DNA of 64,000 bases from an uncultured Flavobacteriaceae bacterium. GTDB taxonomy: Bacteria > Bacteroidota > Bacteroidia > Flavobacteriales > Flavobacteriaceae. The stretch's first letter is position 1. Each line of letters begins with the position of its first letter. Made by a program: the position numbers and the translations under genes. Shown here one piece after another: positions 15,845 through 53,855 of this stretch. The stretch lies in NCBI GenBank assembly GCA_964469175.1, contig CAYXXY010000014.1:3419-67418 (forward strand). Reading direction: 5' to 3'. The notes beneath the pieces were generated by a model, which saw only the letters and a list, made by a program, of their open reading frames with translations, searched no databases and was not told where the DNA came from.

Positions 15845-15852
15845 TATATTTG
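15845..15852 (+). promoter_or_regulatory. candidate Bacteroidota -7 box (TATATTTG) upstream of wza
   Basis: Matches TAnnTTTG, 23 nt upstream of the ATG at 15875. There is no clean -33 TTTG at the expected spacing. Confidence 0.3.
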
Positions 15853-15874
15853 TTTTTTACTTGACAGCATAACT

Positions 15875-16669: not shown

Positions 16670-16672
16670 TTG

Positions 16673-19102
16673 ATGAGTGAAGAATTTGAAATAGACCAGC
16701 TTCAAACCAATTTTGATTTTAGAGGGTTTTTGGTAAAGCTTTTGTCTTACTGGCCTTTGTTTTTGGTTTCACTATTAATTGGTTTTAGCATTGCCTACTA
16801 TGTTAATGTTAGAAAGTTGCCTGTTTATCAAATGTCAAGTTTGATATCAATTAAAGATGATCAAAACCCATTTTTTACTACTACAACCAGTTTAACGTTT
16901 AATTGGGGTGGAACCACAGATAAGGTTAACACCGCAATGATTACTTTGAGAACGCGTTCGCACAATGAGAAAGTTGTTGATCGACTTCAATTTTACCTGC
17001 AATATTTAAAACAAGGAAAATATCAGCTTGAGAATGCTTATGCTCAAACTCCTTTTGTCGTTGAAGTTGATACTTCAAAGCCACAGGTTTTAAATACTTT
17101 AATTACCATTAAGGTAAAAGATACTGCCAGATATAATCTAAGTGTTTCTTTTGAAGAAGGAAGTTATCCTGTACAATTTTATGGTTCTAAAGAAAGGAGC
17201 AGGATAGATATGCCTACTGAAAACTTTGAACGGGACTTTAAGTTTGGACAAAAGGTAGTGTTACCGTTCTTCAATGGTACAATTAATCGTTCAGATCAGG
17301 GTTTACAAGTTGGAGAACCCTATTTTATTCGTTTTCAGAACTTTGATGGGGTTGTGGGAAGATATAGTAATATTTCCATTCGGCCGGAGTCTCAAGGTTC
17401 ATCAGTATTGAATTTAAGATTAACAGGACACAATAAAGCCGAATTGGTAGATTATTTAAATGCAACAGTTCAGGTTTTGGGTGAAGAAGTGCTTGAACGA
17501 AAAAACCTTTTTGCTACTAAAACCATTCAGTTTATAGATAGCACTCTTGCAATTAAATCTGGTGAAATTTCTGAAGTTCAGGATGAGTTGGATGCTTTTA
17601 GAAGTAAATCATCTGTTTTTGATTTAAGTTCTGAAGGGCAAGAGCTAAGCAGTAGACTTAGAATGCTTGATTTACAAAAAAATGCAATTGAACAACAAAT
17701 CAACTACTACAACACATTAGAGGACTACTTATTAAATCGCACAGACTATTCTGATGTCCCGGCGCCATCTGTTGCCGGTATAAGTGAGGCAAGCATAGTA
17801 GCCGGTGTAAGCAGGATTGTAACTTTGGCTGAAGAAAGGAATAGACTTCAATATTCTTTCAGAGAAGGTGCACCGGTGTTTGCTGATATTGACAGGCAAA
17901 TAAATGCTGTAAAAGCTGTATTGCTTGAAAACATAACATCAACTAAATCTATTAAAAACAGGGAAATAAACGAAATAAACAGGGAGGTTTCGCAGGCTGA
18001 AATTGGTATTAGAAAACTACCCAAAGAACAACAACAGCTTTTAGGTATTCAACGTCGGTTTGACTTAAGTAATCAGGCCTATAACCTCTTTTTGTCCAAG
18101 CGGAGTGAAGCTGGTCTTGTAAGGGCAGCAAATGTAAGCGATGTGATTGTCATTGATCCGGCGAAAGATGTTGGTGGAGGGCAAGTTGGCCCAAACAATC
18201 AGTTGAATTATGTGATGGCCGGTGTTTTTGGATTCTTTCTTCCATTTGTTGTGGTTTTTGTAGTAGTTTTTTTTGATAACAAAATTCATACTACCCAAGA
18301 AATTAACAGGCTTTCTCCAATACCAATTTTAGGGGTTGTTGGCAAGAGTCACAAAAATGAAAACCTTGTTGTTATTGATAAGCCAAAATCTGCTATTTCA
18401 GAATCATTTAGATCAATTAGGTCAAGCCTTCAATTCATGTATAAAAAGCGTGGCATAGAAGGCACTAAGACTGTATTGATAACCTCTTCTGTTTCAGGTG
18501 AGGGAAAAACATTTTGCTCTATTAATATTGCATCTGTTTTTGCCTTGAGTGAGAAAAAAACTATTTTGTTAGGCTTAGATTTACGTAAACCAAAAATATT
18601 TGATGATTTTCATATTAAAAATGATAAAGGAATTGTCAATTATTTAATTAATGATTCAAGTCTCGAGCAAATCATTCAAAAGACTAAATTAGATTACTTG
18701 GATATTATCACCTCGGGGCCTATTCCTCCAAATCCTTCAGAATTAATTATTGGTGAGAAAATGGATGAATTAATTGAGGAGCTATCAAAATCATATGATT
18801 ATATCGTTATAGATTCACCTCCCTTAGCCTTAGTTTCTGATGCTTTAGAATTGGTGAGGTATGCAGATGCCACAATTTATGTGGTAAGACAAGATTATAC
18901 AAAGAAAGGGATGCTTTCAGTGATTAACGATAAGTATAAAAAAGGAGAGGTTAAACACATAAGTTTTGTTTTAAATTACTATCAGCAAAAGGCTAAATAT
19001 GGCTACGGCTATGGTTACGGCTATGGATATGGTTATAACTATGGTTACTATACATCTGACAAAAAAGACAGTTTATTAAAACGTATTCTTAAACGCAAGT
19101 AG
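16673..19102 (+). CDS. wzc: polysaccharide co-polymerase / BY-tyrosine kinase (Wzc-like)
   Basis: About 809 aa. Two TM helices flank a coiled-coil periplasmic domain. Walker A SGEGKTF, A' LGLDLRKP, B VIDSPP, and a C-terminal Tyr cluster YGYGYGYGYGYGYNYGYY. Confidence 0.9.
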   Translation: MSEEFEIDQLQTNFDFRGFLVKLLSYWPLFLVSLLIGFSIAYYVNVRKLPVYQMSSLISIKDDQNPFFTTTTSLTFNWGGTTDKVNTAMITLRTRSHNEKVVDRLQFYLQYLKQGKYQLENAYAQTPFVVEVDTSKPQVLNTLITIKVKDTARYNLSVSFEEGSYPVQFYGSKERSRIDMPTENFERDFKFGQKVVLPFFNGTINRSDQGLQVGEPYFIRFQNFDGVVGRYSNISIRPESQGSSVLNLRLTGHNKAELVDYLNATVQVLGEEVLERKNLFATKTIQFIDSTLAIKSGEISEVQDELDAFRSKSSVFDLSSEGQELSSRLRMLDLQKNAIEQQINYYNTLEDYLLNRTDYSDVPAPSVAGISEASIVAGVSRIVTLAEERNRLQYSFREGAPVFADIDRQINAVKAVLLENITSTKSIKNREINEINREVSQAEIGIRKLPKEQQQLLGIQRRFDLSNQAYNLFLSKRSEAGLVRAANVSDVIVIDPAKDVGGGQVGPNNQLNYVMAGVFGFFLPFVVVFVVVFFDNKIHTTQEINRLSPIPILGVVGKSHKNENLVVIDKPKSAISESFRSIRSSLQFMYKKRGIEGTKTVLITSSVSGEGKTFCSINIASVFALSEKKTILLGLDLRKPKIFDDFHIKNDKGIVNYLINDSSLEQIIQKTKLDYLDIITSGPIPPNPSELIIGEKMDELIEELSKSYDYIVIDSPPLALVSDALELVRYADATIYVVRQDYTKKGMLSVINDKYKKGEVKHISFVLNYYQQKAKYGYGYGYGYGYGYNYGYYTSDKKDSLLKRILKRK

Positions 19103-20727: not shown

Positions 20728-21777
20728 ATGAAAAACATATTGATTACCGGAGGTGCCGGATTTATTGGCTCTCACGTGGTACGCCTTTTCGTCAACAAAT
20801 ATCCTGATTATCACATTTACAATCTGGACGCACTCACTTATGCCGGAAATCTTGAAAACTTGATTGATGTTGAAAATAAGCCTAATTATACCTTTTTAAA
20901 AGCCGATATCAACGACACTGAAACTATTTTTTCCCTGTTTCAAAAACATCAATTTGATGCCGTTATCCATTTAGCTGCAGAATCACACGTTGACAGGTCA
21001 ATAACTGACCCGCTTTCTTTTTTAAGAACCAATATTTTTGGAACAGTAAATTTGCTGAATGCTGCACGCGAAAACTGGAAAAACTTTTCCGGTAAAATGT
21101 TTTACCACATCAGTACAGATGAGGTTTATGGCACCTTAGGCGAAACAGGGCTGTTCACTGAACAAACCCCATATCAACCCAACTCACCCTACTCAGCTTC
21201 AAAAGCGGGCTCAGACCACTTTGTAAGGGCATATGGCGAGACATATGGTTTGCCATATATTATCTCCAATTGTTCAAACAATTACGGCCCCAATCAGTTT
21301 CCTGAAAAATTGATTCCATTGTTTATTAACAACATCATTGATAACAAATCACTTCCGGTCTATGGTGACGGCAATTATACCCGCGACTGGCTGTATGTCA
21401 TCGACCACGCTCATGCCATTGATCTGGCGTTTCATAAAGGTAAAGAGGATGAGACTTATAATATTGGCGGTTTCAACGAATGGAAAAATATAGATTTGGT
21501 TCAACTGCTTTGCTCGCTTATGGATGATAAACTTAACAAACCCAAAGACAGTTCACGTCAATTAATTACCTTTGTTGCTGACAGGCCCGGTCACGATTTG
21601 AGGTATGCCATCGATGCCTCAAAAATCAATACAGAATTGGGATGGGTACCATCAGTAAGCTTTGAAGAGGGGCTTTCAAAAACCATAGATTGGTATCTTG
21701 AAAACAAACTGTGGCTGAAAAACGTCACTTCGGGTGCATATCAGGAATACTATAAAAAACAATACAAAACCCAATAA
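20728..21777 (+). CDS. rfbB: dTDP-glucose 4,6-dehydratase
   Basis: [23 protein letters not shown], and [10 protein letters not shown]. An alternative ATG at 20719 overlaps the preceding gene. Confidence 0.95.
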
Positions 21778-41080: not shown

Positions 41081-42445
41081 ATGAGAGCGATTAGAATCAA
41101 ACCCATTAGAAGAATAACTTATCTGCAATTGCTGTTGCTGCATATTGGCATTGCATTTTCTGTGTATCTCTTTCCTTTTTCCTCAAAAATTATTTACCTG
41201 TTTACGGTTGCTTTTTTCTTTTTCCTGATTGTTTCCAAAAGCAATAAGAATGATGAGGCATTACTGGCAGCAGCTTATGTAACGGGTGCTGAGTTGTTTT
41301 TTAGGATGACCGGAGGTGCATTTTTTTATGAGTCAGGTAAATATTTGGTGATAGCCTATCTATTGCTCGGACTTTTTTATAAAGGTGCATCTAAGCGTAC
41401 CCTTCCTTTTTGGATATATCTCTTTTTGCTTATGCCGGGTATTTTGTTTTCGGCTATCAACCTCAACTATGAAACGAATATCAGAACTGCCATAGCGTTT
41501 AACTTGAGTGGTCCCATTACGGTTGGTATAGTAGGCATTTATTGCTTTTTTAGAAAGATTTCTGCAGAAAGAATCCATCATATCTTCCTTGCTGTTTTGT
41601 TGCCCATTATCGCTCTAACATTTTATTTATTTATCTTCACACCAAGTATAAAGGATGCTCTTAGTGGAACAGCTTCAAATGTCGCTGCTTCAGGTGGTTT
41701 TGGTCCAAATCAGGTATCAACCATCATGGGACTTGGTGCTATTATTCTATTTATCAGGTTATTTAGTATTCAAAGTAGATTTATCAATATTATAGACATA
41801 ATATTATTGTCATTTGTCTGCTATAGAGGTTTAGTGACGTTTTCTCGAGGGGGTATGATAAGCGCCTTAATTTGCTGCATTGCTTTTTTAATTGTTTTTT
41901 TCTATAAGTCTGATGCATTGACTAAAGCCAAACTGATGCCTCGAATTGTTGGAATTGCTTTTGCCTTAATTATCACCTGGTTGTTTACCTCTGTTCAGAC
42001 TTACGGATTGCTGAATTTAAGATATAGCAATCAGGATGCGGCGGGAAGGGTGAAAGAAGATATCACTACCGGTAGGGCTGAACTAATAGCAACTGAAATG
42101 GATGCTTTTTTTAATGCACCACTAACAGGAATTGGAATCGGTAAAATAAAAGAATTTAGGGAAGAAATAACTGGAGTCTCTGCTGCAACTCATAACGAAC
42201 TTAGCAGGTTGCTCTCTGAACATGGAATGCCAGGCCTGCTAGCGCTTATTATTATTGTGTTTAGTCCACTAATCTATTGGCTGTTTTACAGACCCAATGT
42301 TTACTTCTTTGCATTTTACTTTTTTTGGCTGCTTACTATCAGTCACTCATCAATGAGGTTAGCCGCACCGGGTTTTATTTATGGACTTTGTCTATTATAC
42401 ATAATTCATGAAAAAAATACTCTACATAGGAAACAAGCTCAATAA
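41081..42445 (+). CDS. O-antigen ligase / Wzy_C family polytopic membrane protein
   Basis: 454 aa with about 10-12 TM helices and a periplasmic loop carrying the Wzy_C-like FSRGGM...HNELSRLLSEHG. Confidence 0.75.
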   Translation: MRAIRIKPIRRITYLQLLLLHIGIAFSVYLFPFSSKIIYLFTVAFFFFLIVSKSNKNDEALLAAAYVTGAELFFRMTGGAFFYESGKYLVIAYLLLGLFYKGASKRTLPFWIYLFLLMPGILFSAINLNYETNIRTAIAFNLSGPITVGIVGIYCFFRKISAERIHHIFLAVLLPIIALTFYLFIFTPSIKDALSGTASNVAASGGFGPNQVSTIMGLGAIILFIRLFSIQSRFINIIDIILLSFVCYRGLVTFSRGGMISALICCIAFLIVFFYKSDALTKAKLMPRIVGIAFALIITWLFTSVQTYGLLNLRYSNQDAAGRVKEDITTGRAELIATEMDAFFNAPLTGIGIGKIKEFREEITGVSAATHNELSRLLSEHGMPGLLALIIIVFSPLIYWLFYRPNVYFFAFYFFWLLTISHSSMRLAAPGFIYGLCLLYIIHEKNTLHRKQAQ

Positions 42446-43418
42446 CAAAAGTAGCACTGTCACATCTATTGATACACTGGGCTTGCTATTAAAAAAGGAA
42501 GGCTATTTAGTTGAAAGTTATTCAAGTAAAAAAAATAAATTAATTAGACTTTTTGATATGTGTCTGGCAGTTTTTAAAAACAGAAGCAATACAGACATTG
42601 CTCTAATTGACACTTATAGTACCCAAAATTTTTATTACGCGTTTTTTGTTGGTGGAATTTGTAAATGGCTATCCATTCCCTATATTCTTATATTGCACGG
42701 AGGTAATTTGCCTGAACGTTTAAAAAACAACAAACGCCTTAGTGATTTCTTATTCAAAAACTCTAAAAAAAACGTTTCACCTTCTAAATATTTACTAAAG
42801 GTGTTTGATGATTTTGGTTATACTAATGTAATTTATATTCCTAATACAATCGAAATAAAAACCTATTCCTTTTTAAATAGAGCCATAGAACCAAAATTAC
42901 TTTGGGTTAGGTCTTTTTCAGAAATATACAATCCTATGATGGCATTGAAAGTTGTTGAGCAACTCTTGCCTCAATTTCCACAGACCAAGCTTTGTATGGT
43001 AGGGCCTGAAAAAGACGGTTCGCTTCAGAAATGTAAAGCTTACGCGAAAAAAAAAGGTTTACCGGTTACTTTTACAGGAAAACTTGAAAAAGAAGATTGG
43101 ATATCACTTTCTGAAAACTATTCCATTTTTATTAATACCACAAATTTTGACAACACACCAGTAAGTGTTATTGAGGCTATGGCTTTGGGGTTGCCGGTCG
43201 TTTCTACAAATGTTGGAGGAATTCCCTTTCTTCTTGATCACAATGAAGATGCTTTGCTTGTTGGACAAAATAATATTGTTGAATTTTCAATTGCTGTCCA
43301 AAAAATATTGTTAAGTCAAGAATTGGCTCACAAACTCACTATCAATGCAAGGAAAAAGGCTGAATCTTTTGATTGGGAAAAAGTTAAACATTATTGGTTT
43401 AAATTATTAGACGAATAA
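42408..43418 (+). CDS. glycosyltransferase family 4 (GT-B)
   Basis: 336 aa. The C-terminal EX7E-like region VIEAMALGLPVVSTNVGG...E. It overlaps the upstream gene by 38 nt. Confidence 0.85.
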   Translation: MKKILYIGNKLNNKSSTVTSIDTLGLLLKKEGYLVESYSSKKNKLIRLFDMCLAVFKNRSNTDIALIDTYSTQNFYYAFFVGGICKWLSIPYILILHGGNLPERLKNNKRLSDFLFKNSKKNVSPSKYLLKVFDDFGYTNVIYIPNTIEIKTYSFLNRAIEPKLLWVRSFSEIYNPMMALKVVEQLLPQFPQTKLCMVGPEKDGSLQKCKAYAKKKGLPVTFTGKLEKEDWISLSENYSIFINTTNFDNTPVSVIEAMALGLPVVSTNVGGIPFLLDHNEDALLVGQNNIVEFSIAVQKILLSQELAHKLTINARKKAESFDWEKVKHYWFKLLDE

Positions 43419-43451
43419 GTTGTATTTTTAAATCCCAAATCAACGAAATAC

Positions 43452-44840
43452 ATGACAAAGACTTCAAAAATCCATTTTGAGATTTCTGAACGAAAAGTGC
43501 TTTTACGAATATTGGACATCGTAACAGTATTTCTTGTTTTGTATGGAGTGGGCGTTTTATTTGTTTTTGATTACTTTAAAATAGCTGATGACCGATGGGA
43601 GTGGTTGATTGTTTTAGCATTGTACTTGTCAATTTTCGGGACTATTTTTGAACTATATGATCTTCAAAAAGCCAGCAAAATAGATATTGTTTTTAAAAAT
43701 ATCGTACTCACAAGCTCTTTAACTGTTTTATTTTACTTGCTCACACCATTTTATACGCCACAGCTACCAGGTAATCGCTTGCAAATTATCTACTTCTTTT
43801 TGGCAATAGTCATAGCTTTGTTTTTATGGCGATTGGCATATATAACATTCATCTCTTCGCCAAGGTTTTATAAGCGGATTTTGATAATAGGAAATTCTGC
43901 TAATGCAAGAATAATGACTGACGCTATTGAGAAATCTGATCCCAATTATAAAGTTATTGGGTTTTTAAATACCGGGAAAGAAATGACCTTTGAAGATTCT
44001 GAACTTCTTGAGTTTAAATCAAATGACTTAAAAAAAATATTAGTTGAAAATTCAATATCAGAAATAATCGTTGCTGGAAATTTAACCAAAAGACTATCAA
44101 TACAAACTTACAATCAACTATTAGACCTTCTTGAGAAAGGCTTTTCAATCAAGGAATATACACAAGTTTATGAAGATTTAACACAACGTGTGCCTGTGCA
44201 TCATGTAGATAAAGATTTTTACAGGTATTTTCCTTTTAGCAGAAGTAATCAAAATAAACTTTATCTTTTTTTTCACCGAATTATGGATGTTGTATTATCA
44301 ATAATAGGTTTATTAATTGGACTTGTAATATTTCCATTTATTCTTTTCGGAAACCTTCTTGGCAATCGAGGCCCTTTACTTTATTTCCAGGAAAGGGTTG
44401 GTAAAAACGGAAAATCTTTTTTTATCATTAAGTTTAGAACAATGGTGAAAAATGCAGAAAAGCACGGTGCTGAATGGTCCACAGAAGGTGATACAAGGGT
44501 AACAAAGTTTGGAAGAATTTTAAGAAAAAGCCGACTTGATGAAATACCGCAATTTATAAATATTTTGAAAGGAGATATGAGCGTAATAGGCCCAAGACCA
44601 GAGCGCCCGGTTTTTGTTAAAGAGCTTTCTGAAGAAATCCCTTTTTATGAAATCAGGCACATTATTAAGCCCGGATTAACAGGCTGGGCACAAGTGAAAA
44701 GTAATTATGCAGCATCAAAAGAAGATGCTCTTGAGAAATTACAATATGACTTGTATTACATCAAAAAACGCAGTGTTTTTCTGGATATAAATATTTTAAT
44801 AAAAACACTAAGCACAATATTATTTTACCGAGGACATTAA
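43452..44840 (+). CDS. polyprenyl glycosylphosphotransferase (WbaP/EpsB-like, TM + CoA-binding-like + sugar transferase domain)
   Basis: 462 aa. Four N-terminal TM helices, and C-terminal DEIPQFINILKGDMSVIGPRPERP. Confidence 0.9.
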   Translation: MTKTSKIHFEISERKVLLRILDIVTVFLVLYGVGVLFVFDYFKIADDRWEWLIVLALYLSIFGTIFELYDLQKASKIDIVFKNIVLTSSLTVLFYLLTPFYTPQLPGNRLQIIYFFLAIVIALFLWRLAYITFISSPRFYKRILIIGNSANARIMTDAIEKSDPNYKVIGFLNTGKEMTFEDSELLEFKSNDLKKILVENSISEIIVAGNLTKRLSIQTYNQLLDLLEKGFSIKEYTQVYEDLTQRVPVHHVDKDFYRYFPFSRSNQNKLYLFFHRIMDVVLSIIGLLIGLVIFPFILFGNLLGNRGPLLYFQERVGKNGKSFFIIKFRTMVKNAEKHGAEWSTEGDTRVTKFGRILRKSRLDEIPQFINILKGDMSVIGPRPERPVFVKELSEEIPFYEIRHIIKPGLTGWAQVKSNYAASKEDALEKLQYDLYYIKKRSVFLDINILIKTLSTILFYRGH

Positions 44841-45315: not shown

Positions 45316-46269
45316 TTAGGAAGCTTGTTTTTTGTTTTTCAACGGGCTTATGATTTTTACATCCTGAAAAGCAATTGCTCCACGAATTACTCCTGAGATC
45401 ACACTGTAAAGCGCATCGACAATCTGAAGTTTAAGTTCGCTTTTATGTTGCAATAAACTCACCTCTCTTGCCGGTGCCGGTTCTTTAAAATAATGCAGAT
45501 ACTTTTTCTCTTTTTCCTTAATATCAAGTGTGTGCAGAAATGGCAAAAGTGTCATACCCAAACCTTCATTGGCGAGCTTGATGAGTGTTTCAAAACTGCC
45601 GCTTTCAAGTTGAAATTTGTCAATTTCAGATCTATTGGAGACTTTGCAAAGATTGATTACACCATCCCTAAAACAGTGTCCGTCCTCAAGTAAGAGTATA
45701 TCGTCAATATCCAAATCGGAAATCGTAATGTCTTTTTTTGAAAAAAGCCGGTGGTTTTCTGTGATATATGCTACAAAGGGTTCATAATACAACACACGTT
45801 CCTTGATAGAATCATTGAGTAGAGGGGTAGCTGCAATAGCAGCATCCAGATGCCCCTCGTTTAATCGTTTGATACATTCCTCGGTGTTTAATTCTTCAAT
45901 TTTTAAATGCACTTTGGGATGGCGGTTGTTAAATGCTTTTAAAAACATAGGGAGCAGGGTGGGCATCACAGTTGGGATGATTCCCAACCTGAATTCACCT
46001 CCCACAAAGCCTTTCTGCTGGTCAACAATATCCTGCATCCGTTCTGCTTCATTGACAATCTTTCGGGCTTGATCAACTATTGTTTTGCCTATATCGGTTA
46101 GTTTTAATGGCTTGGTGCTCCTGTCAAAAATAAGGATATCGAGTTCTTCTTCAAGTTTTTGTATTTGCATACTGAGCGTGGGCTGGGTCACAAAAGTTTT
46201 CTCAGCTGCTTTTGTAAAGTTTTGATGTTCTGCCACCATCAAAACATATTTCAATTGGGTAATGGTCAT
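45316..46269 (-). CDS. oxyR: LysR-family redox sensor OxyR
   Basis: 317 aa. N-terminal wHTH (FTKAAEKTFVTQPTLSMQIQKLE) and the OxyR Cys pair in LEDGHCFRDGVINLC (C-x8-C). Confidence 0.85.
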   Translation of the reverse strand: MTITQLKYVLMVAEHQNFTKAAEKTFVTQPTLSMQIQKLEEELDILIFDRSTKPLKLTDIGKTIVDQARKIVNEAERMQDIVDQQKGFVGGEFRLGIIPTVMPTLLPMFLKAFNNRHPKVHLKIEELNTEECIKRLNEGHLDAAIAATPLLNDSIKERVLYYEPFVAYITENHRLFSKKDITISDLDIDDILLLEDGHCFRDGVINLCKVSNRSEIDKFQLESGSFETLIKLANEGLGMTLLPFLHTLDIKEKEKKYLHYFKEPAPAREVSLLQHKSELKLQIVDALYSVISGVIRGAIAFQDVKIISPLKNKKQAS

Positions 46270-46302
46270 GGTATTTGTTTTGCTGATGTAAATTTAAAAA
46301 TA

Positions 46303-46321
46303 TTATAAGAATATCTTATAA
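46303..46321. promoter_or_regulatory. inverted repeat TTATAAGA-N3-TCTTATAA in the 62-nt gap upstream of oxyR
   Basis: 8-bp perfect arms. LTTR-box-like (T-N11-A) geometry. Candidate OxyR autoregulatory operator. Confidence 0.35.
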
Positions 46322-46331
46322 AAAAAACATT

Positions 46332-47663
46332 CTAAATCATTCCCCTGGCTTTGATTTCCAGATATTTGTTGATGGTGTTTATTGTAAGGTCTTCGGGGGA
46401 GGTGAGTACGGTTTGTATGCCTTTCTGTTGCAACTCTTTAACTATAAGTTTTTTGTCGTGCTGAAATTGTTGTGCAATGGTGCTTTCATATATCTCAGTG
46501 AGATTTTCGGCTTTTTTTTCTGCCAACTTAGCCAATTCTGTATTCTCAAAAAAAATGACAACCAACACGTGTTTTTTGGCTATGGCCTGAAGGTATTTTA
46601 GCTGTCTTTGAAGTGAAGAAATATGCTCAAAATTGGTATAAAGCATAATCAGGCTTCGGTGATTGATGTTTCTTTTTATGGTTGCCTGTAACAATCCAAA
46701 ATCAGAATCCAGAAAATTGGTATTTAAATTGTAAAGGGTTTCCAATATGGTGTTTAAATAAGTGCGTTTTGCCTGTGCAGGGATTATTTTGTGAATCTTA
46801 TTTGAAAACTGAACAACTCCCACTTTATCACCCTTTTTAAGGGCAATATTTGAAAAAGCAAGCGTGCTGTTGATGGCATAATCAAGTAATTTCAACTCGT
46901 TGAATGGCATTTTCATTACCCTTCCGGAGTCGATGATGGAGTAAATGGGCTGCATTTTTTCATCCTGGTACTGATTGACCATTAAATGTGATTTCTTGGC
47001 CGTGGCTTTCCAGTTGATCGAGCGGATGTCATCACCGGAAACATATTCCTTGATTTGTTCAAACTCCATAGTGTGGCCAATGCGCCTGATTTTTTTCAAG
47101 CCCAGAAAACTTAATTTACTGTCCATGGCCAGAAAATCATACTTTTTCATTTGAATGAAGGAGGGGTACACCTTCACCATTTGATTGTAATTGAAGCGGT
47201 TTCTTCTTTTTACTAATCCGATGGAAGTGGAAACATAGCAATTCAAATTTCCGAAGAAATATTCACCGCGCTCCACAGGCCTTACATCATAAGTAAGGGT
47301 TTTTTGTTGATTGCCGTTGAGGGTGGCTGTCATCAGGAAATCCCTTTTTTGAAATTGGATTGGTAATTCGTCAATAATTTCAACCTGAATTTTAAAATTG
47401 TATTGGTTGTGAAATTTCAATAAAACATAATTGGCATCACTGTTGGAAAATTTTTCGGGAAGGATTCGCTCTCCTTTTAAAGCAGCCGATTTGTAGAGCA
47501 TGGATATTTCGGTTAAAACCAAAACTATAAATGCCAAAACCAATAACCAAACCACACCATAAAACCCCGGAAACCAGTAAGACAGCAGAAACAAAAGTGC
47601 TATTCCGGTCAGGATTTTAAAAAACCTTTCGGTAAGGTATAATGATTTTATGAATTTCAGCAT
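46332..47663 (-). CDS. DUF58 domain protein (vWA-like fold, two N-terminal TM helices)
   Basis: 443 aa. DUF58 signature GDDIRSINWKATAKKSHLMVNQY. Its start abuts the MoxR stop. Confidence 0.85.
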   Translation of the reverse strand: MLKFIKSLYLTERFFKILTGIALLFLLSYWFPGFYGVVWLLVLAFIVLVLTEISMLYKSAALKGERILPEKFSNSDANYVLLKFHNQYNFKIQVEIIDELPIQFQKRDFLMTATLNGNQQKTLTYDVRPVERGEYFFGNLNCYVSTSIGLVKRRNRFNYNQMVKVYPSFIQMKKYDFLAMDSKLSFLGLKKIRRIGHTMEFEQIKEYVSGDDIRSINWKATAKKSHLMVNQYQDEKMQPIYSIIDSGRVMKMPFNELKLLDYAINSTLAFSNIALKKGDKVGVVQFSNKIHKIIPAQAKRTYLNTILETLYNLNTNFLDSDFGLLQATIKRNINHRSLIMLYTNFEHISSLQRQLKYLQAIAKKHVLVVIFFENTELAKLAEKKAENLTEIYESTIAQQFQHDKKLIVKELQQKGIQTVLTSPEDLTINTINKYLEIKARGMI

Positions 47664-48662
47664 TTATCTGGGTATTTCTACAGATTGTGTAATCATTTGA
47701 ATGACTGTTTCTGGGGTCATGCCCTCCATTTCCCTTTCGGGGGAAAGAATGATTCTGTGGTTCAATACCGGATGGAGTGTTTTTTTAATATCATCGGGAA
47801 TGACAAAATCCCTGCCTGCAATGGCGGCATAAGCTTTAGAGGTATTCATAATGGCGATTGATGCCCTGGGAGATCCCCCTAAATATAAATGAGGGTGGTT
47901 TCTTGTTTTGTCGATGATCTGAGCGATGTAATTAAATAATTTTTCGTCAATCAGAATATCCTGAACCTGCAATCTGAATTTTTTTAATTGCTCAACACTA
48001 AGCACGGCCTCAACTTCTGCTTCAGGAAGACTGAGTTTGCGAAGGTCGTGTGACTTTAAAATAATTACTTCCTCTTCAACAGTGGGGTAGCCCACCTTTA
48101 TTTTAAACAAGAAACGGTCGAGTTGTGCCTCGGGCAGGGCATAAGTTCCTTCCTGCTCCAGCGGATTTTGTGTAGCAACCACCATAAACGGATAATCCAT
48201 AATGTATTTTGTACCGTCCATTGTGATTTGGCGTTCTTCCATCACTTCAAAAAGTGCCGACTGAGTTTTTGCGGGGGCCCGGTTGATTTCATCAATCAAC
48301 ACCACACTTGAAAAAACAGGGCCTTTTTTAAACTCAAACTCGGTGGTTTTTGCATTAAAAACTGAGGTTCCCAAAACATCACTGGGCATCAAATCCGGTG
48401 TGAACTGGATGCGGCTGAATTCTGTTTGCAGGGTTTTTGCAAACAATTTTGCGGTGATGGTTTTTGCAATTCCGGGAACACCTTCAATCAAAACGTGGCC
48501 GTTTGCCAAAAGACATACAATGAGTTGTTCAATAAACTCATTTTGACCAATAATCACTTTTCCGAGTTGTGACTTGATGGACTCGACGGCTTCTTTGAGT
48601 TCATCCAATTGGATTCTGTTTCCAAAATTTAGCTCATCATTATTGTTTTCAGGATTTTCCAT
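47664..48662 (-). CDS. MoxR-like AAA+ ATPase
   Basis: 332 aa. Walker A GVPGIAKT, Walker B VLIDEINRA, and ATQNPLEQEGTY-LPEAQLDRF. Confidence 0.95.
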   Translation of the reverse strand: MENPENNNDELNFGNRIQLDELKEAVESIKSQLGKVIIGQNEFIEQLIVCLLANGHVLIEGVPGIAKTITAKLFAKTLQTEFSRIQFTPDLMPSDVLGTSVFNAKTTEFEFKKGPVFSSVVLIDEINRAPAKTQSALFEVMEERQITMDGTKYIMDYPFMVVATQNPLEQEGTYALPEAQLDRFLFKIKVGYPTVEEEVIILKSHDLRKLSLPEAEVEAVLSVEQLKKFRLQVQDILIDEKLFNYIAQIIDKTRNHPHLYLGGSPRASIAIMNTSKAYAAIAGRDFVIPDDIKKTLHPVLNHRIILSPEREMEGMTPETVIQMITQSVEIPR

Positions 48663-49866
48663 CTGTTTTTGTTTTAAAATTATGTATTTTATTGTAGAAA
48701 TCTTCTAATTCTAGGTTGGTAATTTCTTTGCGGTTTTGAATGGTTTTAATGTCACTGAATAGGGCCATCACTTCCTCTTGAGTGTGATTGCTTCTGGAGG
48801 CCACTTCTTCAAAAAAACGTTTGTTAATGTGTTCTGTCTGCACCCTAAGTTTTAACCTGATGTGTTCCAGAAAACCGGCAATCATTTTTGTGGCAATCTC
48901 CCTGTTGTCTTTTTTATCCAAATAAATAGACGCTATGGTTTGGGTGTATTCATAGGTCTTGTTGTTCAGTTTGGGGATGATGGGTAGGGGACGCTGTTTG
49001 CGCTTTCCTTCAAATATAACAAACAACAAAACGCCAATTAGCACAAAATAATAAGCCCATTTAAGGGATTTAGTACTCAGTAAAATTTTAAGTGGTGACA
49101 CATCAAAACGGCGACCGGTTTTGTAGTAATTGTCCCAGTAAATGGTTTCACCGGTGTTGATGTATGACAATACATTCTCGGTGAGTGAGGTGTTTTTTGG
49201 GTTAACCAAAAAGTAATTTGAAAAAATTTCAGGTTGGTTATACAAGAAGATTGCGCCATTTCCAAAAGGAATTTTCAAGAAATTGGGACGCGCTTTATCC
49301 ATAATGTTGTCATTTTCAAAAGGCTGGGCGATTCCCAGCACAATATGGGAGAGCGTGTCAATTTTGCTGAAATAAGGAATACTTAAGTCTTGCGGAATGT
49401 GATAGGGTACATCTGCTTTGAGATTATTGTTCACCAAATTGATTTGAGGTTCGGTGCTAAAACGATCAATAAGCAAAAAAGCTCTTATTTCTATGCCTAA
49501 AGTATCCAGTAAATTGCGAGAATATCTGTTGGCAGAGAGAAAAAGGGTATTTCCATTATTGGTCCAATCAAGTAAACTGTTTAGTTCTTCATCATCAAAA
49601 AACAGGGCGTTGTTAATGAATAGGTAAGTTCCTTCAGGCTTGTTGTCCATCAGGTTTATAAATGGCGGTATATTTGAATCGACAAGTTTTTCCTTAAAAT
49701 GTGATTTCAGGTGGTCATAAATAATAAAATTACCAAGGGGAACTTTATCCAGTTTGTTATAACTGGGAAACCAATTGAGTGGTGGTGGTTTGGTAGCTTC
49801 CACATACACCAGCGCTCCGATAACAATCAGAAAAAATATCAATGTTATTTTTTGAAGCTTACTCAC
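48649..49866 (-). CDS. DUF4350-like membrane protein
   Basis: 405 aa. An N-terminal TM helix, an extracytoplasmic domain of about 250 aa, a second TM helix, then a cytoplasmic helical tail. It overlaps moxR by 14 nt. Confidence 0.65.
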   Translation of the reverse strand: MSKLQKITLIFFLIVIGALVYVEATKPPPLNWFPSYNKLDKVPLGNFIIYDHLKSHFKEKLVDSNIPPFINLMDNKPEGTYLFINNALFFDDEELNSLLDWTNNGNTLFLSANRYSRNLLDTLGIEIRAFLLIDRFSTEPQINLVNNNLKADVPYHIPQDLSIPYFSKIDTLSHIVLGIAQPFENDNIMDKARPNFLKIPFGNGAIFLYNQPEIFSNYFLVNPKNTSLTENVLSYINTGETIYWDNYYKTGRRFDVSPLKILLSTKSLKWAYYFVLIGVLLFVIFEGKRKQRPLPIIPKLNNKTYEYTQTIASIYLDKKDNREIATKMIAGFLEHIRLKLRVQTEHINKRFFEEVASRSNHTQEEVMALFSDIKTIQNRKEITNLELEDFYNKIHNFKTKTDGKS

Positions 49867-50617
49867 TTTTCTTACTGATATTGTTTTTGAGAGTTACAAA
49901 CCGGTGTTTTGCTTTTGTAAAATCTGTTTCTGAAACTTCAAAATTGCCATACCAAACATATTCATAAATAAACGCTGATTTTTTGAATTGAGCCGAGAGG
50001 TGTTCCTGCTTTATTTCCTTAATATAGTCTGTATTGGTTTTGTCAAATTGGTAATTAATGATTTCTTTTTCGCTTAAGCTTTTAAGAATAAGTAAAAAAT
50101 AATACCTTACGGCGAGTCTGTAGTTTTTATTTGCCAGCGCTTCGTCAATTAGGGCCTGAATATCTTCAGACTTTATGATTTTTTCTTCTTCGGTAAAAAA
50201 CACTTGAGCTTCTTCTTTTGAATACAACAGACCGGAACCGGGATTTAACCTGTAAAACAGCCAGATTAGAAAAACAACGATTCCGCCAATGATGATGTAA
50301 GGCATGGCCTGATAAAGAAAATAGAGAAATGAATTTGATTTAAAATCACCCAACAGCCAGGTCCAAAAGCTTACCCAATGCCTGTATAGCCATCTTTTGA
50401 ATTGTTGCCACCAATTGTCTTCCTGAATTTTTTCTGTATAATCAAAATAAGGGTCATTTTGGTATTTTTCGGTTTTAACAGGGTCAAAAGAAACAGGTGT
50501 AACATCAGAAGACTGGTCATATTTAACTTCCGGGTGCAACTGAAATTCATTTAACGAAAATGAAAATCCGGAAACCCCGAAAATTAAAAAAAACAGTATA
50601 AGCAGGTTTAACCTCAT
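49859..50617 (-). CDS. DUF4129-like membrane protein
   Basis: 252 aa. Signal/TM segment, a central TM helix, and a C-terminal helical domain (YRLAVRYYFLLILKSLSEKEII). It overlaps the next gene by 8 nt. Confidence 0.65.
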   Translation of the reverse strand: MRLNLLILFFLIFGVSGFSFSLNEFQLHPEVKYDQSSDVTPVSFDPVKTEKYQNDPYFDYTEKIQEDNWWQQFKRWLYRHWVSFWTWLLGDFKSNSFLYFLYQAMPYIIIGGIVVFLIWLFYRLNPGSGLLYSKEEAQVFFTEEEKIIKSEDIQALIDEALANKNYRLAVRYYFLLILKSLSEKEIINYQFDKTNTDYIKEIKQEHLSAQFKKSAFIYEYVWYGNFEVSETDFTKAKHRFVTLKNNISKKSE

Positions 50618-50626
50618 TCTAGCGAA

Positions 50627-50661
50627 TTCTAACTTCTAACTTTGTACTTCTAACTTTTAAA
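50627..50661 (-). repeat. five tandem heptamers (plus strand TTCTAAC TTCTAAC TTTGTAC TTCTAAC TTTTAAA)
   Basis: They fill the only intergenic gap of the MoxR operon. They end 9 nt upstream of the DUF4129 ATG and overlap the stop of the preceding gene. Confidence 0.6.
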
Positions 50662-51523
50662 CATCATTCTCTCTTTTACCAAGGTTGTCAATAGTTTCAA
50701 GAGTTCCGGTGAAGTTTTTCTTTTCATTTAGATTAAAATAAACAAATGCAGTCGCTATGAGAATTAATGCGAAAAGAAAATATTGAGCAATCATTGAAAA
50801 AACATCCAGGCTTATGGAAATCCAGTCAACTATTTCAAAAGGATTTATAGAAACTTCATTCATCATTGTAAACATTTTTACTAAATAATAGATGAGTTGG
50901 GGTAACTGAAAAATAAATGCAATTACATAGTACAAGATGTAAATAACAAAGAGCGTTGCAAATGTGATCCACCATTCATCTTTGATGAGTTTAAAACTAT
51001 TACTGATGGCGTTACCCAAATCTTTGCGTTCAAACATCATCATCGGAAAAGTCATAGATAAACATACCGCCAAATAAATACCCGGCAGGAAGCACAATAC
51101 TAGGCCAATACCAACCATGAGTCCAACAATAATATTCAAACCTATGTAACTCCAAAAATGGTTTCTAGCCAGTTGTGTGACTTCGTTTTCATTTACATTT
51201 CCATTGTTTTCAATATAGTTTTTAATATACCCAAAAACAGCACCATAGAGTAATGCATAAAAAGCGATGTATGAACAGACTAACAGTATACTTGAAATAA
51301 TCATGTTTGAGGCAAGTGAAGGAGCGGAAAATATGCGTTCAAAATCCCCCATAGTTGCTTGTGCATAATACACATAACTAGCTATCATCACCAACATGGC
51401 CGGCCCTGAAATTTTTAAAATAAGTAGCCCAAGGGTTTTGCCTTCAACCCTGATAAACTTGAACACATCGGTAATGATGGCACCAATGTCGCGCTGTTGT
51501 TTAAAATCTATAACTTCTTTCAT
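50657..51523 (-). CDS. polytopic membrane protein of unknown function (about 6 TM)
   Basis: 288 aa with a long clean ORF. It has a 4-nt ATGA-type overlap with the upstream SpoIIM-like gene. Confidence 0.7.
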   Translation of the reverse strand: MKEVIDFKQQRDIGAIITDVFKFIRVEGKTLGLLILKISGPAMLVMIASYVYYAQATMGDFERIFSAPSLASNMIISSILLVCSYIAFYALLYGAVFGYIKNYIENNGNVNENEVTQLARNHFWSYIGLNIIVGLMVGIGLVLCFLPGIYLAVCLSMTFPMMMFERKDLGNAISNSFKLIKDEWWITFATLFVIYILYYVIAFIFQLPQLIYYLVKMFTMMNEVSINPFEIVDWISISLDVFSMIAQYFLFALILIATAFVYFNLNEKKNFTGTLETIDNLGKRENDV

Positions 51524-52485
51524 GGATGGTTTTGTTTTGCTTTATTTAGTTTGATTGGGTAGAAAACATAGTAAAAAAGAATAAGGTACAGCGATCCTCC
51601 AATAATGAGAATTGCCAGCCAGTCGGGCATTTGGGTGTGGCGGGTTACAAACCCTTCCAAAAACCCGGCAATGATAAAAAACGGAATGGTACTGACAATG
51701 ATTTTTAATCCGTCTTTTGCCCCTCTTACGAAAGATTGAAGTCGGGTGTAGGTCCCGGGAAATAAAATGCTGTTTCCAAGAACAAGTCCCGCACAACCGG
51801 CAACGATGATCACTGAAATTTCAATCGTTCCGTGAATCCAGATGGTTCTCACTGATTCCCAGAACAGGTTGTAATCATAAAAAAAGTATTGAAAGGAGCC
51901 TAACATAATTCCGTTATTCATTAAAACGTAAAGGGTTCCAATACTTAATAATATGCCAAACACAAATGCGAGGAGTGCTACCTTAATGTTGTGTACAGTA
52001 ATTCCCAGAAACATATCCACTTCGCCCATTTTTTTGTAAACCGCCATCGGGTCTCCTTTTTCAATGTTGCTGATGGTCATATTCACATAGCCGTCTCCCA
52101 TGATCAACCTGACAAAATCGCCGTCAGTAGCTGCAGAAAAGGCACCGATTGCCACAAACAAGCTGAAAGATAAAAAAGCAACAAGCAACTGCTTGTGGTA
52201 TTGATAGAAAAACAATGGAAATTCTTTGGTGTAGAATGTGACAAGCTTGTTTCGGGACTCTTTCTTGTTTTTGTAAATCTTGTTATGTGCTAAAATTGCC
52301 AGACTGTTCAGGTATCTTAAAGTCTCGCTTTTTGGATAAAATGTCTGGGCATAACTCAGGTGGTCTGTAACTTCAATGTACAGTCCGCTGAGTTCATCCG
52401 GATTAATTTGAACATTATTCCTAAGAACACTTTCAAATCTTATCCATTTATCTTTATTTTGTTTTACAAATGCTGCTTCACGCAT
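51520..52485 (-). CDS. SpoIIM-like (DUF95) membrane protein
   Basis: 321 aa. Family motifs IWIHGTIEISVIIVAG and GFLEGFVT. It has an N-terminal cytoplasmic extension. Confidence 0.8.
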   Translation of the reverse strand: MREAAFVKQNKDKWIRFESVLRNNVQINPDELSGLYIEVTDHLSYAQTFYPKSETLRYLNSLAILAHNKIYKNKKESRNKLVTFYTKEFPLFFYQYHKQLLVAFLSFSLFVAIGAFSAATDGDFVRLIMGDGYVNMTISNIEKGDPMAVYKKMGEVDMFLGITVHNIKVALLAFVFGILLSIGTLYVLMNNGIMLGSFQYFFYDYNLFWESVRTIWIHGTIEISVIIVAGCAGLVLGNSILFPGTYTRLQSFVRGAKDGLKIIVSTIPFFIIAGFLEGFVTRHTQMPDWLAILIIGGSLYLILFYYVFYPIKLNKAKQNHP

Positions 52486-52521
52486 TTAATAAGAAATTAC
52501 TTTTTCAAAGAAACAGATTAA

Positions 52522-53238
52522 ATGGATAATTTTCAAATAGAAACTGCACAAAATGTTACGATTTCTCAAAATGTTGCAGGCATTGGTGACCGCATACTGG
52601 CTTACATACTTGACAACTTGATAATTGGGGTTTATATTATCCTTATTTTCTTCTTAATTTCAGCAACAAATGTTAGTATAGACAGTATGTTTTTAATTTC
52701 CACAACAGTAGGCTTGCCCATTTTTCTTTACCATTTGCTTTGGGAAACATTATGGAACGGGCAAACCCCCGGAAAAGCTGTTATGAAAATCAGGGTGGTT
52801 AAACTGGATGGTTCAAAACCCGCATTTTCAAATTATTTATTGCGATGGTTAATGCGATTGGTTGATATCAGTTTTACAAGTGGGGCAGTAGCTGTAGTCA
52901 CGATTTTACTCAACGGGAAAGGACAACGTTTGGGGGACATTGCGGCCACTACAACAGTGATTTCAGAGAAAAAAAATACCGGAATCACAACCATCAGGCA
53001 CATAGAGGTTGAGGAAGAATATTTGCCCAAATATCCGCAGGTCACCGTTTTTAATGACAGTGAGATGCAAACCATTAAAAAGCTTTACTTTGAATCAAAA
53101 TATAAGGGAAATCACAATGTGATTTTGAAACTATCTTCAAAAGCTGCTGAAGTTATGCAGGTTAATTTTGATGAAAATCCCATTGATTTTTTAGACAGAA
53201 TCATTAAGGATTATGCCTTTTATACCCAAAGCCTATGA
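52522..53238 (+). CDS. RDD family membrane protein
   Basis: 238 aa. The N-terminal RDD region RILAYILDNLII... with 3 TM helices and a soluble C-terminal domain. It is divergent from the SpoIIM-like gene across 36 nt. Confidence 0.85.
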   Translation: MDNFQIETAQNVTISQNVAGIGDRILAYILDNLIIGVYIILIFFLISATNVSIDSMFLISTTVGLPIFLYHLLWETLWNGQTPGKAVMKIRVVKLDGSKPAFSNYLLRWLMRLVDISFTSGAVAVVTILLNGKGQRLGDIAATTTVISEKKNTGITTIRHIEVEEEYLPKYPQVTVFNDSEMQTIKKLYFESKYKGNHNVILKLSSKAAEVMQVNFDENPIDFLDRIIKDYAFYTQSL

Positions 53239-53855
53239 GTATATTCCTAGTTATAGATATATTGGGTACCGTTGCATTTGCCATTTCAGGAGTGCTGACG
53301 GCTATGCACAAACGTTTGGACTTGTTTGGTATTTTCATCATTGCATTTGTAACTTCTGTTGGAGGCGGAACACTAAGGGATTTACTGCTTGATGTTCATA
53401 TTGTATGGATGCACAATATGACATATGTTTATGTGATATTTTTTTCTGCAACTTTTGCTATTATTTTCAGAAACAAGCTCAATTATTTTAGAAGAACATT
53501 GTTCTTATTTGATACAATTGGTATTGCGTTATTCACGATGGTGGGTATAGAAAAAGGCGTTCAAATGGATTTGCATCCCATTATTTGCGTATCATTGGGA
53601 ACAATGTCTGCTTGTTTTGGTGGTGTGATCAGGGATATATTGTGTAATGAAATTCCCATAATTTTTAGAAAAGAAATTTATGCCACTGCTTGTATTTTGG
53701 GTGGAATATTCTATTTCTTGTTAAGCCTTACCTCTTTGGATCCGAGTTGGATTGTCATTATTTCCGGATCAGTGGTTATTACTGTAAGAATTTTGGCGGT
53801 GAAATTTAAGTTGTCACTGCCATCAATTTACCCGAAAAACGAAATCAATTCTTAA
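53235..53855 (+). CDS. trimeric intracellular cation channel (TRIC/UPF0126) family protein
   Basis: 206 aa. The duplicated glycine motifs GGGTLRD and FGGVIRD. It has an ATGA overlap with the RDD gene. Confidence 0.85.
   Translation: MSIFLVIDILGTVAFAISGVLTAMHKRLDLFGIFIIAFVTSVGGGTLRDLLLDVHIVWMHNMTYVYVIFFSATFAIIFRNKLNYFRRTLFLFDTIGIALFTMVGIEKGVQMDLHPIICVSLGTMSACFGGVIRDILCNEIPIIFRKEIYATACILGGIFYFLLSLTSLDPSWIVIISGSVVITVRILAVKFKLSLPSIYPKNEINS

Follow-up and report, generated by a model that had tools for sequence, protein, structure and literature searches.

What do MoxR ATPases do together with the DUF58 proteins encoded beside them? The question is a long-standing one. MoxR ATPases are established to work through adaptors of the von Willebrand factor A (vWA) fold, as in RavA-ViaA, NorQ-NorD and CbbQ-CbbO. 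Here we examine a 64-kb stretch of DNA from an uncultured Flavobacteriaceae bacterium related to Aequorivita and Ulvibacter (the whole 64,000 nucleotides (nt) are called the window below), in which a MoxR-DUF58 pair lies among nine open reading frames (ORFs) at 45316-53855. A preliminary description, made from the sequence alone, had taken these nine as a membrane module composed of a six-gene operon on the minus strand, a divergent RDD-TRIC pair and an adjacent oxyR gene.

Two questions arise from this arrangement: which of the nine genes belong together, and how might their products work? On the first, the genes recur in the same order and with tight junctions, within the family and across phyla, and the arrangement is far beyond chance. 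Comparison of gene neighbourhoods places the unit at seven genes, not nine: RDD, SpoIIM-like, a polytopic membrane protein, DUF4129, DUF4350, MoxR and DUF58. On the second, we give about even chances to a reading in which the window carries one copy of a widespread seven-gene inner-membrane system, built of two linked modules, whose MoxR-DUF58 pair remodels a co-encoded membrane complex.

The module is widespread, parts of its neighbourhood have been noted before (PMC5898192) and its genes are routinely annotated. The window holds an ordinary ortholog of this 'known unknown' and itself contributes just one further ortholog. New here are the corrected unit boundaries, the two-module structure and a list of invariant residues. 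For the role of MoxR-DUF58 pairs, the analysis delimits one recurrent module and removes two misleading neighbours. Because the set occurs in genetically tractable Flavobacteriia and Sphingobacteriia and in mycobacteria, including Mycobacterium tuberculosis, concrete tests are possible.

Limits of the conserved unit

The layout given in the preliminary description was reproduced throughout. The ORF list for the window returns all nine ORFs at the same coordinates (Table 1), and direct reading of the junctions gives the 4-nt overlap of the SpoIIM-like and polytopic genes (51520-51523), the 8-nt overlap GTGAGTAA of the DUF4129 and DUF4350 genes (49859-49866), the 14-nt overlap of the DUF4350 and MoxR genes (48649-48662), the TAA/ATG abutment of MoxR and DUF58 at 47663/47664, the ATGA overlap that joins RDD to TRIC, the divergent spacer and the gap between DUF58 and oxyR. 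Much of this tightness is shared by relatives. Our genome scan covers the best 80 loci, nearly all with Flavobacteriaceae-type names (three bins of metagenome-assembled genomes (MAGs) are labelled otherwise), in which the DUF4350 match is 42-58% identical to that of the window. The order RDD on one strand, then SpoIIM-like, polytopic, DUF4129, DUF4350, MoxR and DUF58 on the other, is found in 61 of the 63 loci longer than 20 kb. The 8-nt overlap is kept in 55 of 78 loci and the 14-nt overlap in 44 of 78; DUF58 lies directly downstream of MoxR, at a spacing of 0±3 nt in most loci; and the spacer between RDD and the SpoIIM-like gene measures 33-37 nt in 65 of 70. These conserved overlaps support the earlier reading of the six minus-strand genes as a single operon.

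Within the family, synteny extends equally to the PPIase, NUDIX and acyltransferase genes on the flanks, and deeper sampling was therefore needed to set the boundaries of the operon. Loci from other phyla were collected in two ways, by a tblastn search of large 'plasmid' records for the SpoIIM-like protein and from contigs that carry homologs. Gene order proved to be conserved well past close relatives. Desertivirga and Olivibacter (Sphingobacteriia), Prevotella and two further lineages have the seven genes in identical order and orientation, with all flanks different and no TRIC, DUF2141 or PPIase gene. Rhizobium and Paracoccus cluster six families as overlapping genes on one strand, in the order DUF805, DUF4129-like, DUF4350-like, MoxR, DUF58, SpoIIM, RDD. 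Catenovulum has five families (RDD, SpoIIM, a protein of 515 amino acids (aa), DUF4350, MoxR, DUF58), its 515-aa protein, which matches no family, occupying the polytopic/DUF4129 position. All seven families are present in Nonomuraea gerenzanensis and Nonomuraea sp. PA05, where DUF7847/GPDPase_memb, DUF4129, DUF4350, MoxR and DUF58 converge on a SpoIIM gene that is itself divergent from RDD. Over the 14 bacterial loci from outside the Flavobacteriaceae, RDD adjoins a SpoIIM-family gene every time and MoxR-DUF58 is there in 11.

The preliminary description had pointed to a similar cluster in Actinobacteria, and the cluster is real. In addition to Nonomuraea, a published expression table for Mycobacterium chelonae lists the counterparts of Rv3689 and Rv3691-Rv3695 as a membrane protein, DUF4350, MoxR, DUF58, SpoIIM and RDD. 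Five of the seven families are thus named at Rv3689-Rv3695, and the sixth gene encodes an unassigned membrane protein; by analogy with Nonomuraea, Rv3690 is assumed to be the DUF4129 protein. The M. chelonae block changed expression together and by a similar amount, a change shared with the neighbouring glpF, glpK, PadR and KR-domain genes. Rv3694c (SpoIIM-like) and Rv3695 (RDD) have both been recovered in an Rv0954 pull-down. When its DUF4129 and GPDPase_memb/DUF7847-like proteins are assigned through their orthologs, the window holds the same seven families as the Rv3689-Rv3695-type cluster. The distribution makes it plausible that the seven-gene system is ancient; we stop at plausible because many proteobacterial copies are carried on megaplasmids.

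Not every locus is complete. Two Flavobacteriaceae MAG contigs, L024 and L038, lack RDD and the SpoIIM-like gene but have the MoxR part, together with the polytopic gene in L024; other loci have the RDD/SpoIIM part without MoxR, and we therefore describe the system as two linked modules. At the one haloarchaeal locus examined, in Natribaculum, a SpoIIM-family ORF stands without partner genes, which agrees with the finding of Makarova et al. that archaeal SpoIIM is mostly alone (PMC5898192).

The two outermost genes of the nine fare differently. Of the divergent pair, RDD belongs to the core, as its place beside SpoIIM outside the family indicates, and TRIC does not: RDD has no TRIC gene next to it in 24 of 70 family loci, nor in any of the 14 bacterial loci from elsewhere (in one of the 24, L071, a TRIC-like ORF lies about 14 kb off, on the other side of the module). 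The adjacency of oxyR, which had been taken as a link to the module, failed the comparison. Only in about 16 of 65 loci is oxyR the next gene after DUF58; the median DUF58-oxyR distance in relatives is 679 nt, and the gene is absent at the sphingobacterial, cytophagial, proteobacterial and actinobacterial loci examined. In most relatives (L004-L081) a gene for a secreted DUF2141 protein of about 140 aa (PF09912, E 1e-28) separates DUF58 from oxyR. The window and about 16 close relatives have no such gene there, and the 62-nt adjacency is probably a derived deletion. Because neither adjacency is conserved within the family or beyond it, we place TRIC and OxyR outside the conserved module, as neighbours, on this comparative evidence.

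Components, proposed mechanism and alternatives

The family calls of the preliminary description hold in a Pfam search. MoxR matches AAA_3 (PF07726, E 1e-62) and AAA_lid_2 (PF17863, E 3e-24), and also a structure deposited as an 'uncharacterized protein' (PDB 2r44, E 3e-81). Its translation has intact Walker A (GVPGIAKT, G61-T68), Walker B (D124-E125) and sensor-1 (N166) motifs as well as R183 and R266; the arginine finger and sensor 2 are intact too. MoxR is the one product without transmembrane (TM) segments in a hydropathy scan, again as first described. The sole MoxR segment above threshold, residues 47-65, runs into Walker A, and we read it as a hydrophobic strand of the ATPase core, not a membrane helix; MoxR is the only soluble component.

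DUF58 matches PF01882 (E 4e-18; 65.8 bits against a cut-off of 23.4) and VWA_2 (E 8e-5). An automatic gene caller placed its start later, giving 389 aa. The 443-aa start, and with it the abutment to MoxR, stands because the longer protein begins with a hairpin of two helices that Rhizobium and Nonomuraea share with the Flavobacteriaceae. Residues rich in lysine and arginine before TM1 and after TM2 suggest, by the positive-inside rule, that the vWA-like domain is cytoplasmic. This domain does not have the canonical metal-ion-dependent adhesion site (MIDAS; DxSxS...T...D): the window protein has DSGRV, and TN for TD. D-[ST]-[GS]-[RKH] replaces DxSxS in the whole subfamily, and TN for TD is also found in the Flavobacteriaceae. 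Searches of PDB sequences with the DUF58, DUF4350 and SpoIIM-like proteins returned no match.

The DUF4350 protein (PF14258, E 7e-18) is bitopic. TM1 is followed by a periplasmic alpha/beta domain of GIFT/GATase1-like fold, TM2 and a helical cytoplasmic tail, in an AlphaFold2 model with a predicted local distance difference test score (pLDDT) of 80.6. Foldseek aligns the model to the GIFT domain of IFT52 (5fms, E 8.7e-5) and also to GH42 trimerisation domains, and the predicted fold is consistent with the link to GldG reported earlier (PMC5898192). After TM2 comes a motif, FEGKRKQRxIPV, that is conserved in Bacteroidota, with R289, Q291 and N302 invariant in an alignment of 44 sequences. It is modelled at a pLDDT below 50, and conservation combined with low model confidence would fit a docking segment that folds on a partner. 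In the DUF4129 protein the domain itself (PF13559) falls below threshold (E 7e-4; 20.1 bits, cut-off 24.8). It is found, however, in 39 of 40 orthologs (best E 3.4e-9) and in the Nonomuraea counterpart (E 5.6e-12). Hydropathy makes this protein bitopic too, with a signal or anchor segment, a short periplasmic part, a TM segment at 104-122 and a cytoplasmic DUF4129 domain.

The idea that the cytoplasmic tail of DUF4350 is itself a DUF4129 domain was rejected (hhalign probability 0.2%); a weak cross-match of the two profiles in Catenovulum probably reflects a TM segment. In Nocardia farcinica (L084, 3989-5854) a single ORF immediately upstream of MoxR joins DUF4129 (E 1.8e-11) to a region matching TM2 and the C-terminal tail in the DUF4350 profile; the periplasmic GIFT domain seems to be missing.

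Three further membrane proteins complete the set. The SpoIIM-like protein (PF01944, E 3.5e-37) begins with a cytoplasmic helical domain, DUF8413 (PF28475, from precomputed annotation), which precedes the PF01944 membrane domain. Its AlphaFold2 model is confident (pLDDT 87.3, predicted template modelling score 0.70) and resembles no fold in the PDB (best E 1.1). Eight residues are invariant across three phyla: W14, N166, N191, H218, G219, E222, R248 and E277. N166, N191, H218 and E222 lie within predicted TM helices, and R248 and E277 at the ends of one such helix. RDD (PF06271, E 6e-22) likewise has residues invariant across three phyla, E75, K85, R108 and R136 in addition to R24, D31 and D139, the arginine and two aspartates typical of the family. 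The polytopic protein of the window reaches 25.6 bits with GPDPase_memb, below the cut-off. Among 38 orthologs, 29 match UPF0259 and 15 match GPDPase_memb, and the positional counterpart in Nonomuraea passes the cut-offs of GPDPase_memb and DUF7847. These matches assign it to the UPF0259(YciC)/GPDPase_memb/DUF975/DUF7847 group.

Unusual forms of these membrane proteins occur at several loci. On a Natribaculum longum megaplasmid (L092, 7906-9438), a 511-aa stop-to-stop ORF has DUF7847 at a sub-cut-off 24.5 bits ahead of SpoIIM (E 5e-27), possibly fusing two families whose genes are neighbours in the window. In Bernardetia (L085, 9001-10854) and on a related metagenome contig (L091, 7964-9817) the SpoIIM-like protein is 617 aa long, with a TM-rich C-terminal extension of about 300 aa in which no family is detectable. 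That this is a fusion with the polytopic protein is not supported (BLASTP E 2.7, no profile match). One or two small DUF805 membrane proteins are encoded upstream of DUF4129 in Rhizobium (L082, 3560-4643) and Paracoccus (L089, 4251-4691), at the position held by the UPF0259/GPDPase_memb-like protein in Bacteroidota and Actinobacteria.

How might these products act together? The remodelling proposal follows from the way in which MoxR ATPases act, through vWA-fold adaptors. One module (A) would be the divergent RDD/SpoIIM-like pair, with the UPF0259/GPDPase_memb-like polytopic protein in Bacteroidota and Actinobacteria; the other (B) would consist of DUF4129, DUF4350, MoxR and DUF58. DUF58, its vWA-like domain mounted on a TM hairpin, would tether a hexamer of the AAA+ ATPase MoxR to the cytoplasmic side of the membrane. 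This pair of motor and adaptor would then spend ATP on assembling or remodelling the cytoplasmic tails of DUF4350 and DUF4129, whose periplasmic domains, that of DUF4350 with its GIFT/GldG-like fold, would face the envelope. The SpoIIM-like/RDD platform, with the polytopic protein, would be the working membrane core, its state set by the remodelling. The analysis establishes the gene content and order, the coupling, the clustering across phyla, the predicted topology, the intact ATPase motifs, the degenerate MIDAS and the folds; the physical contacts, the direction of action and the envelope-related role are what we infer here. Contact is hinted at, though not firmly, by the possible fusions, of DUF4129 with the DUF4350 tail in Nocardia and of DUF7847 with SpoIIM in Natribaculum.

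Several observations weigh against this proposal. Both fusions are read from stop-to-stop ORFs, and for one of them the Pfam score is below threshold. The non-canonical MIDAS of DUF58 means that the usual metal-mediated binding of clients may not apply. The juxtamembrane motif of DUF4350 is conserved only within Bacteroidota, not in other phyla. Two Bernardetia loci and Arthrobacter hold the RDD/SpoIIM pair with no MoxR module within 9 kb, so that the RDD/SpoIIM module can work alone. Finally, a literature search for DUF4350, DUF4129 and Rv3689-Rv3695 found no functional study of any member, in line with the earlier remark that the components lack experimental characterisation.

Other readings account for some of the same facts. 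One, after the preliminary description, is a nine-gene unit that serves in oxidative or envelope stress, with OxyR as regulator of the operon and cation flux added by RDD-TRIC. The MoxR-DUF58 Bat operon of Bacteroides, linked to aerotolerance, speaks for it, as do the OxyR with both redox cysteines encoded on the same strand just downstream, the 4-nt RDD/TRIC overlap, present here and in 34 of 48 loci, and an oxyR-like gene less than 6 kb from the Prevotella locus. We nonetheless find this reading improbable: TRIC is so often missing, a DUF2141 gene parts DUF58 from oxyR in most relatives, no OxyR accompanies the module in Sphingobacteriia, Cytophagia, Proteobacteria or Actinobacteria, the Prevotella oxyR is divergent from sod-ahpC-ahpF-dps, the oxyR spacer of the window has a LysR-type dyad of its own, and the housekeeping flanks are equally syntenic within the family. 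It is equally improbable that two unrelated systems, RDD-SpoIIM and MoxR-DUF58-DUF4350-DUF4129, simply lie side by side. Each does occur apart from the other (A in Bernardetia and Arthrobacter, B in L024 and L038), and their relative orientation varies between phyla; against this, 11 of 14 distant bacterial loci, from three phyla, have A and B together even though the order is rearranged, translational coupling places them in a single operon in Bacteroidota and Alphaproteobacteria, and the mycobacterial genes change expression together.

The remaining alternatives concern what the module does. SpoIIM-like and RDD could together make up an intramembrane enzyme, or a pathway for ions or small solutes, with the MoxR module serving just to mature or gate it. 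The polar residues invariant within the SpoIIM-like TM helices and the invariant arginine, aspartate, glutamate and lysine residues of RDD are consistent with such a role. So would be, by analogy, a Halobacillus RDD protein reported to be a Na+(Li+,K+)/H+ antiporter, the coupling of a TRIC channel to RDD in part of the family, and the occurrence of module A alone in some genomes. Since the only characterised SpoIIM, that of Bacillus subtilis, is described as a scaffold, and the SpoIIM-like model matches no transporter fold, we consider this rather unlikely. A related and somewhat less unlikely idea is that a SpoIIM-like core with invariant intramembrane Asn/Asn/His/Glu is an unrecognised enzyme or ion pathway within an ancient AAA+-coupled machine of three phyla; if true, it would also change the understanding of sporulation SpoIIM. 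A secretion or surface-assembly system, as Makarova et al. proposed in 2015 for archaeal DUF4350-MoxR-vWA operons, would fit the predominance of membrane proteins among the products and the resemblance of the DUF4350 ectodomain to the GIFT domains of GldG and IFT52, and DUF4350, MoxR and vWA/DUF58 are the core of that predicted system (PMC5898192). The Pfam families of the operon do not include the S-layer and Ig-domain proteins found in the archaeal model, however; no outer-membrane or channel-forming component and no conserved adjacent cargo gene is encoded, and the hairpin anchor of DUF58 suggests a cytoplasmic rather than a secreted vWA domain. We rate this account as low as the nine-gene one. 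Least probable by far is a role in anti-phage defence or conflict; conflict systems built on MoxR-vWA have been described. The window MoxR matches the bpMoxR Pfam model weakly (E 2e-12), but a PADLOC search of the components gave no significant match to any defence-system model, only weak generic AAA+ hits (DolB, 33.6 bits; IetA, 14.3 bits); the locus is chromosomally stable across the whole family, and no effector-like domain appeared in the Pfam search. Remodelling of a co-encoded membrane complex by MoxR-DUF58 is the reading that we carry forward.

Layout of the locus and its neighbours

Table 1. Features of the locus, in window coordinates
Feature	Position	Strand	Remarks
LysR/OxyR-like	45316-46269	-	from ORF list
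Gap between DUF58 and oxyR	46270-46331		62 nt
Dyad ATAAGATATTCTTAT	46305-46319	-	T-N11-A, LysR-box-like; in the 62-nt spacer upstream of oxyR
DUF58	46332-47663	-	443 aa; last gene of the operon
MoxR	47664-48662	-	332 aa
DUF4350	48649-49866	-	405 aa; GTG start
DUF4129-like	49859-50617	-	252 aa
Intergenic gap, polytopic/DUF4129	50618-50656	-	39 nt; AGTTAGA copies
Polytopic protein	50657-51523	-	288 aa
SpoIIM-like	51520-52485	-	321 aa; first gene of the operon
Divergent spacer, RDD/SpoIIM-like	52486-52521		36 nt
Spacer element TAAATCTGTTTCTTTG	~52506-52521	-	16 nt; abuts the RDD start codon
RDD	52522-53238	+	238 aa; divergent from the SpoIIM-like gene
TRIC-like	53235-53855	+	from ORF list

The one gap of any length inside the operon contains, as first noted, a heptamer repeat: three copies of AGTTAGA and one degenerate copy, AGTACAA. 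In 21 of 25 relatives compared, the equivalent gap is usually 1-4 nt (range -8 to 10); it is 34, 52 and 220 nt in three others, and the junction does not exist in L017. We regard the heptamer gap as a lineage-specific oddity, not a conserved feature. The divergent spacer is another matter. Its element TAAATCTGTTTCTTTG is kept in more than 40 loci, across genera whose proteins share only 42-58% identity, and is not a repeated motif within the window (2 matches against 4.8 expected). Its likeness to the Bacteroidetes TAnnTTTG -7 box points to a putative promoter role. A scan for sigma-70 promoters and terminators gave matches at or below shuffle expectation; Bacteroidota use promoters other than the sigma-70 consensus.

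The TRIC-like protein (PF03458/UPF0126, E 1e-47, in two repeat stretches) matches the prokaryotic TRIC structures 5wuf (E 6e-41), 5h36 (E 6.5e-32) and 5h35. The regulator has LysR_substrate (E 1.4e-34) and HTH_1 (E 1.1e-19) domains, and its best PDB match, Pseudomonas aeruginosa OxyR (4x6g, E 1.5e-44), aligns through HCFRDGVINLC with both cysteines, the equivalents of C199 and C208; the Cys-x8-Cys pair is thus as first described. The NCBIfam OxyR equivalog is its best-scoring model, at 203.8 bits against a cut-off of 329, and we call it OxyR-like because the score falls under that cut-off. The perfect dyad ATAAGATATTCTTAT upstream of it suggests, from the general T-N11-A rule for LysR regulators, that oxyR may have its own autoregulated promoter.

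In Prevotella sp. oral taxon 299 (L088, 1636-7725) an oxyR-like gene lies 5 kb off on the opposite side of the locus, adjoining RDD/SpoIIM. It is divergent from sod, ahpC, ahpF and a Dps/ferritin-like gene, and from genes for DoxX and an NlpE-like lipoprotein. The sod-ahpC-ahpF-dps genes are classic OxyR targets. An oxyR gene is thus found near the locus in two classes of Bacteroidota, on opposite sides. One ancestral juxtaposition followed by an inversion could explain both positions, and there may be a weak functional link.

Beyond oxyR in the window (42408-44840) lies a polysaccharide-synthesis block of a Wzy_C polymerase, a GT1 glycosyltransferase and a Bac_transf sugar transferase. At L001 the counterpart of this block (15027-18786) is followed by a peptidase M28, a fatty-acid hydroxylase and a very large MG2/A2M-type protein (20833-21218, at the end of the locus). 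As far as can be seen, the block is unrelated to the operon. In Nonomuraea sp. PA05 (L090, 15961-18993) the module adjoins a trio of genes with Response_reg+Trans_reg_C, HAMP+HisKA+HATPase_c and LpqB_N domains, which we take to be MtrA-MtrB-LpqB. An S-adenosylhomocysteine hydrolase gene stands on the other side of that module, and also near RDD/SpoIIM in Arthrobacter (L087). Three contigs with the order typical of Flavobacteriaceae and 47-49% identity (L031, L041 and L046) belong to bins that carry the labels Latescibacterota, Alteromonas and 'unidentified eubacterium SCB49', and are probably mis-binned or mislabelled.

Comparison with known systems

RavA-ViaA, NorQ-NorD and CbbQ-CbbO resemble the present system in pairing a MoxR motor with a vWA-fold adaptor encoded next to it. 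Adaptors of the RavA-ViaA type have a canonical MIDAS and soluble or respiratory enzymes as clients; the present system has a degenerate MIDAS, and its clients would be the co-encoded membrane proteins.

Operons of the Bat type (the MRP subfamily of Snider and Houry) also have DUF58 directly after MoxR, and membrane-anchored partners. In those operons, MoxR-DUF58 is followed by the vWA proteins BatA and BatB and by TPR proteins. Their places are taken here by DUF4350, DUF4129, SpoIIM-like, RDD and UPF0259-like proteins; the absence of BatA/B-type partners stated in the preliminary description was borne out, as Pfam finds no vWA family besides DUF58 and no TPR family in the nine products. The bifidobacterial PFNA operon, of the MoxR-DUF58-transglutaminase type, likewise couples MoxR and DUF58 to a membrane protein. 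DUF4129 has been linked to such MoxR-DUF58-transglutaminase clusters, and Pseudomonas TgpA ends in a DUF4129 domain. Unlike these clusters, the present one contains no transglutaminase, kinase or FN3 protein, and its DUF4129 is a separate small bitopic protein.

With SpoIIM of B. subtilis, part of the SpoIID/SpoIIM/SpoIIP engulfment machine, the window protein shares the PF01944 membrane domain; it differs in its added N-terminal DUF8413 domain and its partnership with RDD. Flavobacteriaceae are not known to form spores, and no SpoIID or SpoIIP gene was found in the locus by Pfam. The B. subtilis protein has been described as a membrane scaffold that recruits envelope-acting enzymes.

The archaeal arCOG01314 system of Makarova et al. 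also combines a DUF4350 protein having a GldG-like ectodomain, a COG0714 MoxR and a vWA protein, and the same study noted that bacterial SpoIIM homologs adjoin vWA and COG0714 genes (PMC5898192). The archaeal set differs in adding S-layer and Ig-domain proteins (arCOG02884 and relatives) and in having no RDD, DUF4129 or polytopic protein, and archaeal DUF4350-MoxR-vWA operons are separate from the mostly lone SpoIIM homologs (PMC5898192).

The mycobacterial Rv3689-Rv3695 genes (BB28_RS01875-01900 of M. chelonae; MAB_0386c-0392c) share with the window a consecutive membrane protein, DUF4350, MoxR, DUF58, SpoIIM and RDD. Nonomuraea keeps the internal order of the window for the polytopic protein, DUF4129, DUF4350, MoxR and DUF58. 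The window has the SpoIIM-like gene at the head of the operon, whereas in Actinobacteria it runs towards the MoxR operon and away from RDD, and the actinobacterial proteins are about 20-25% identical to their counterparts in the window.

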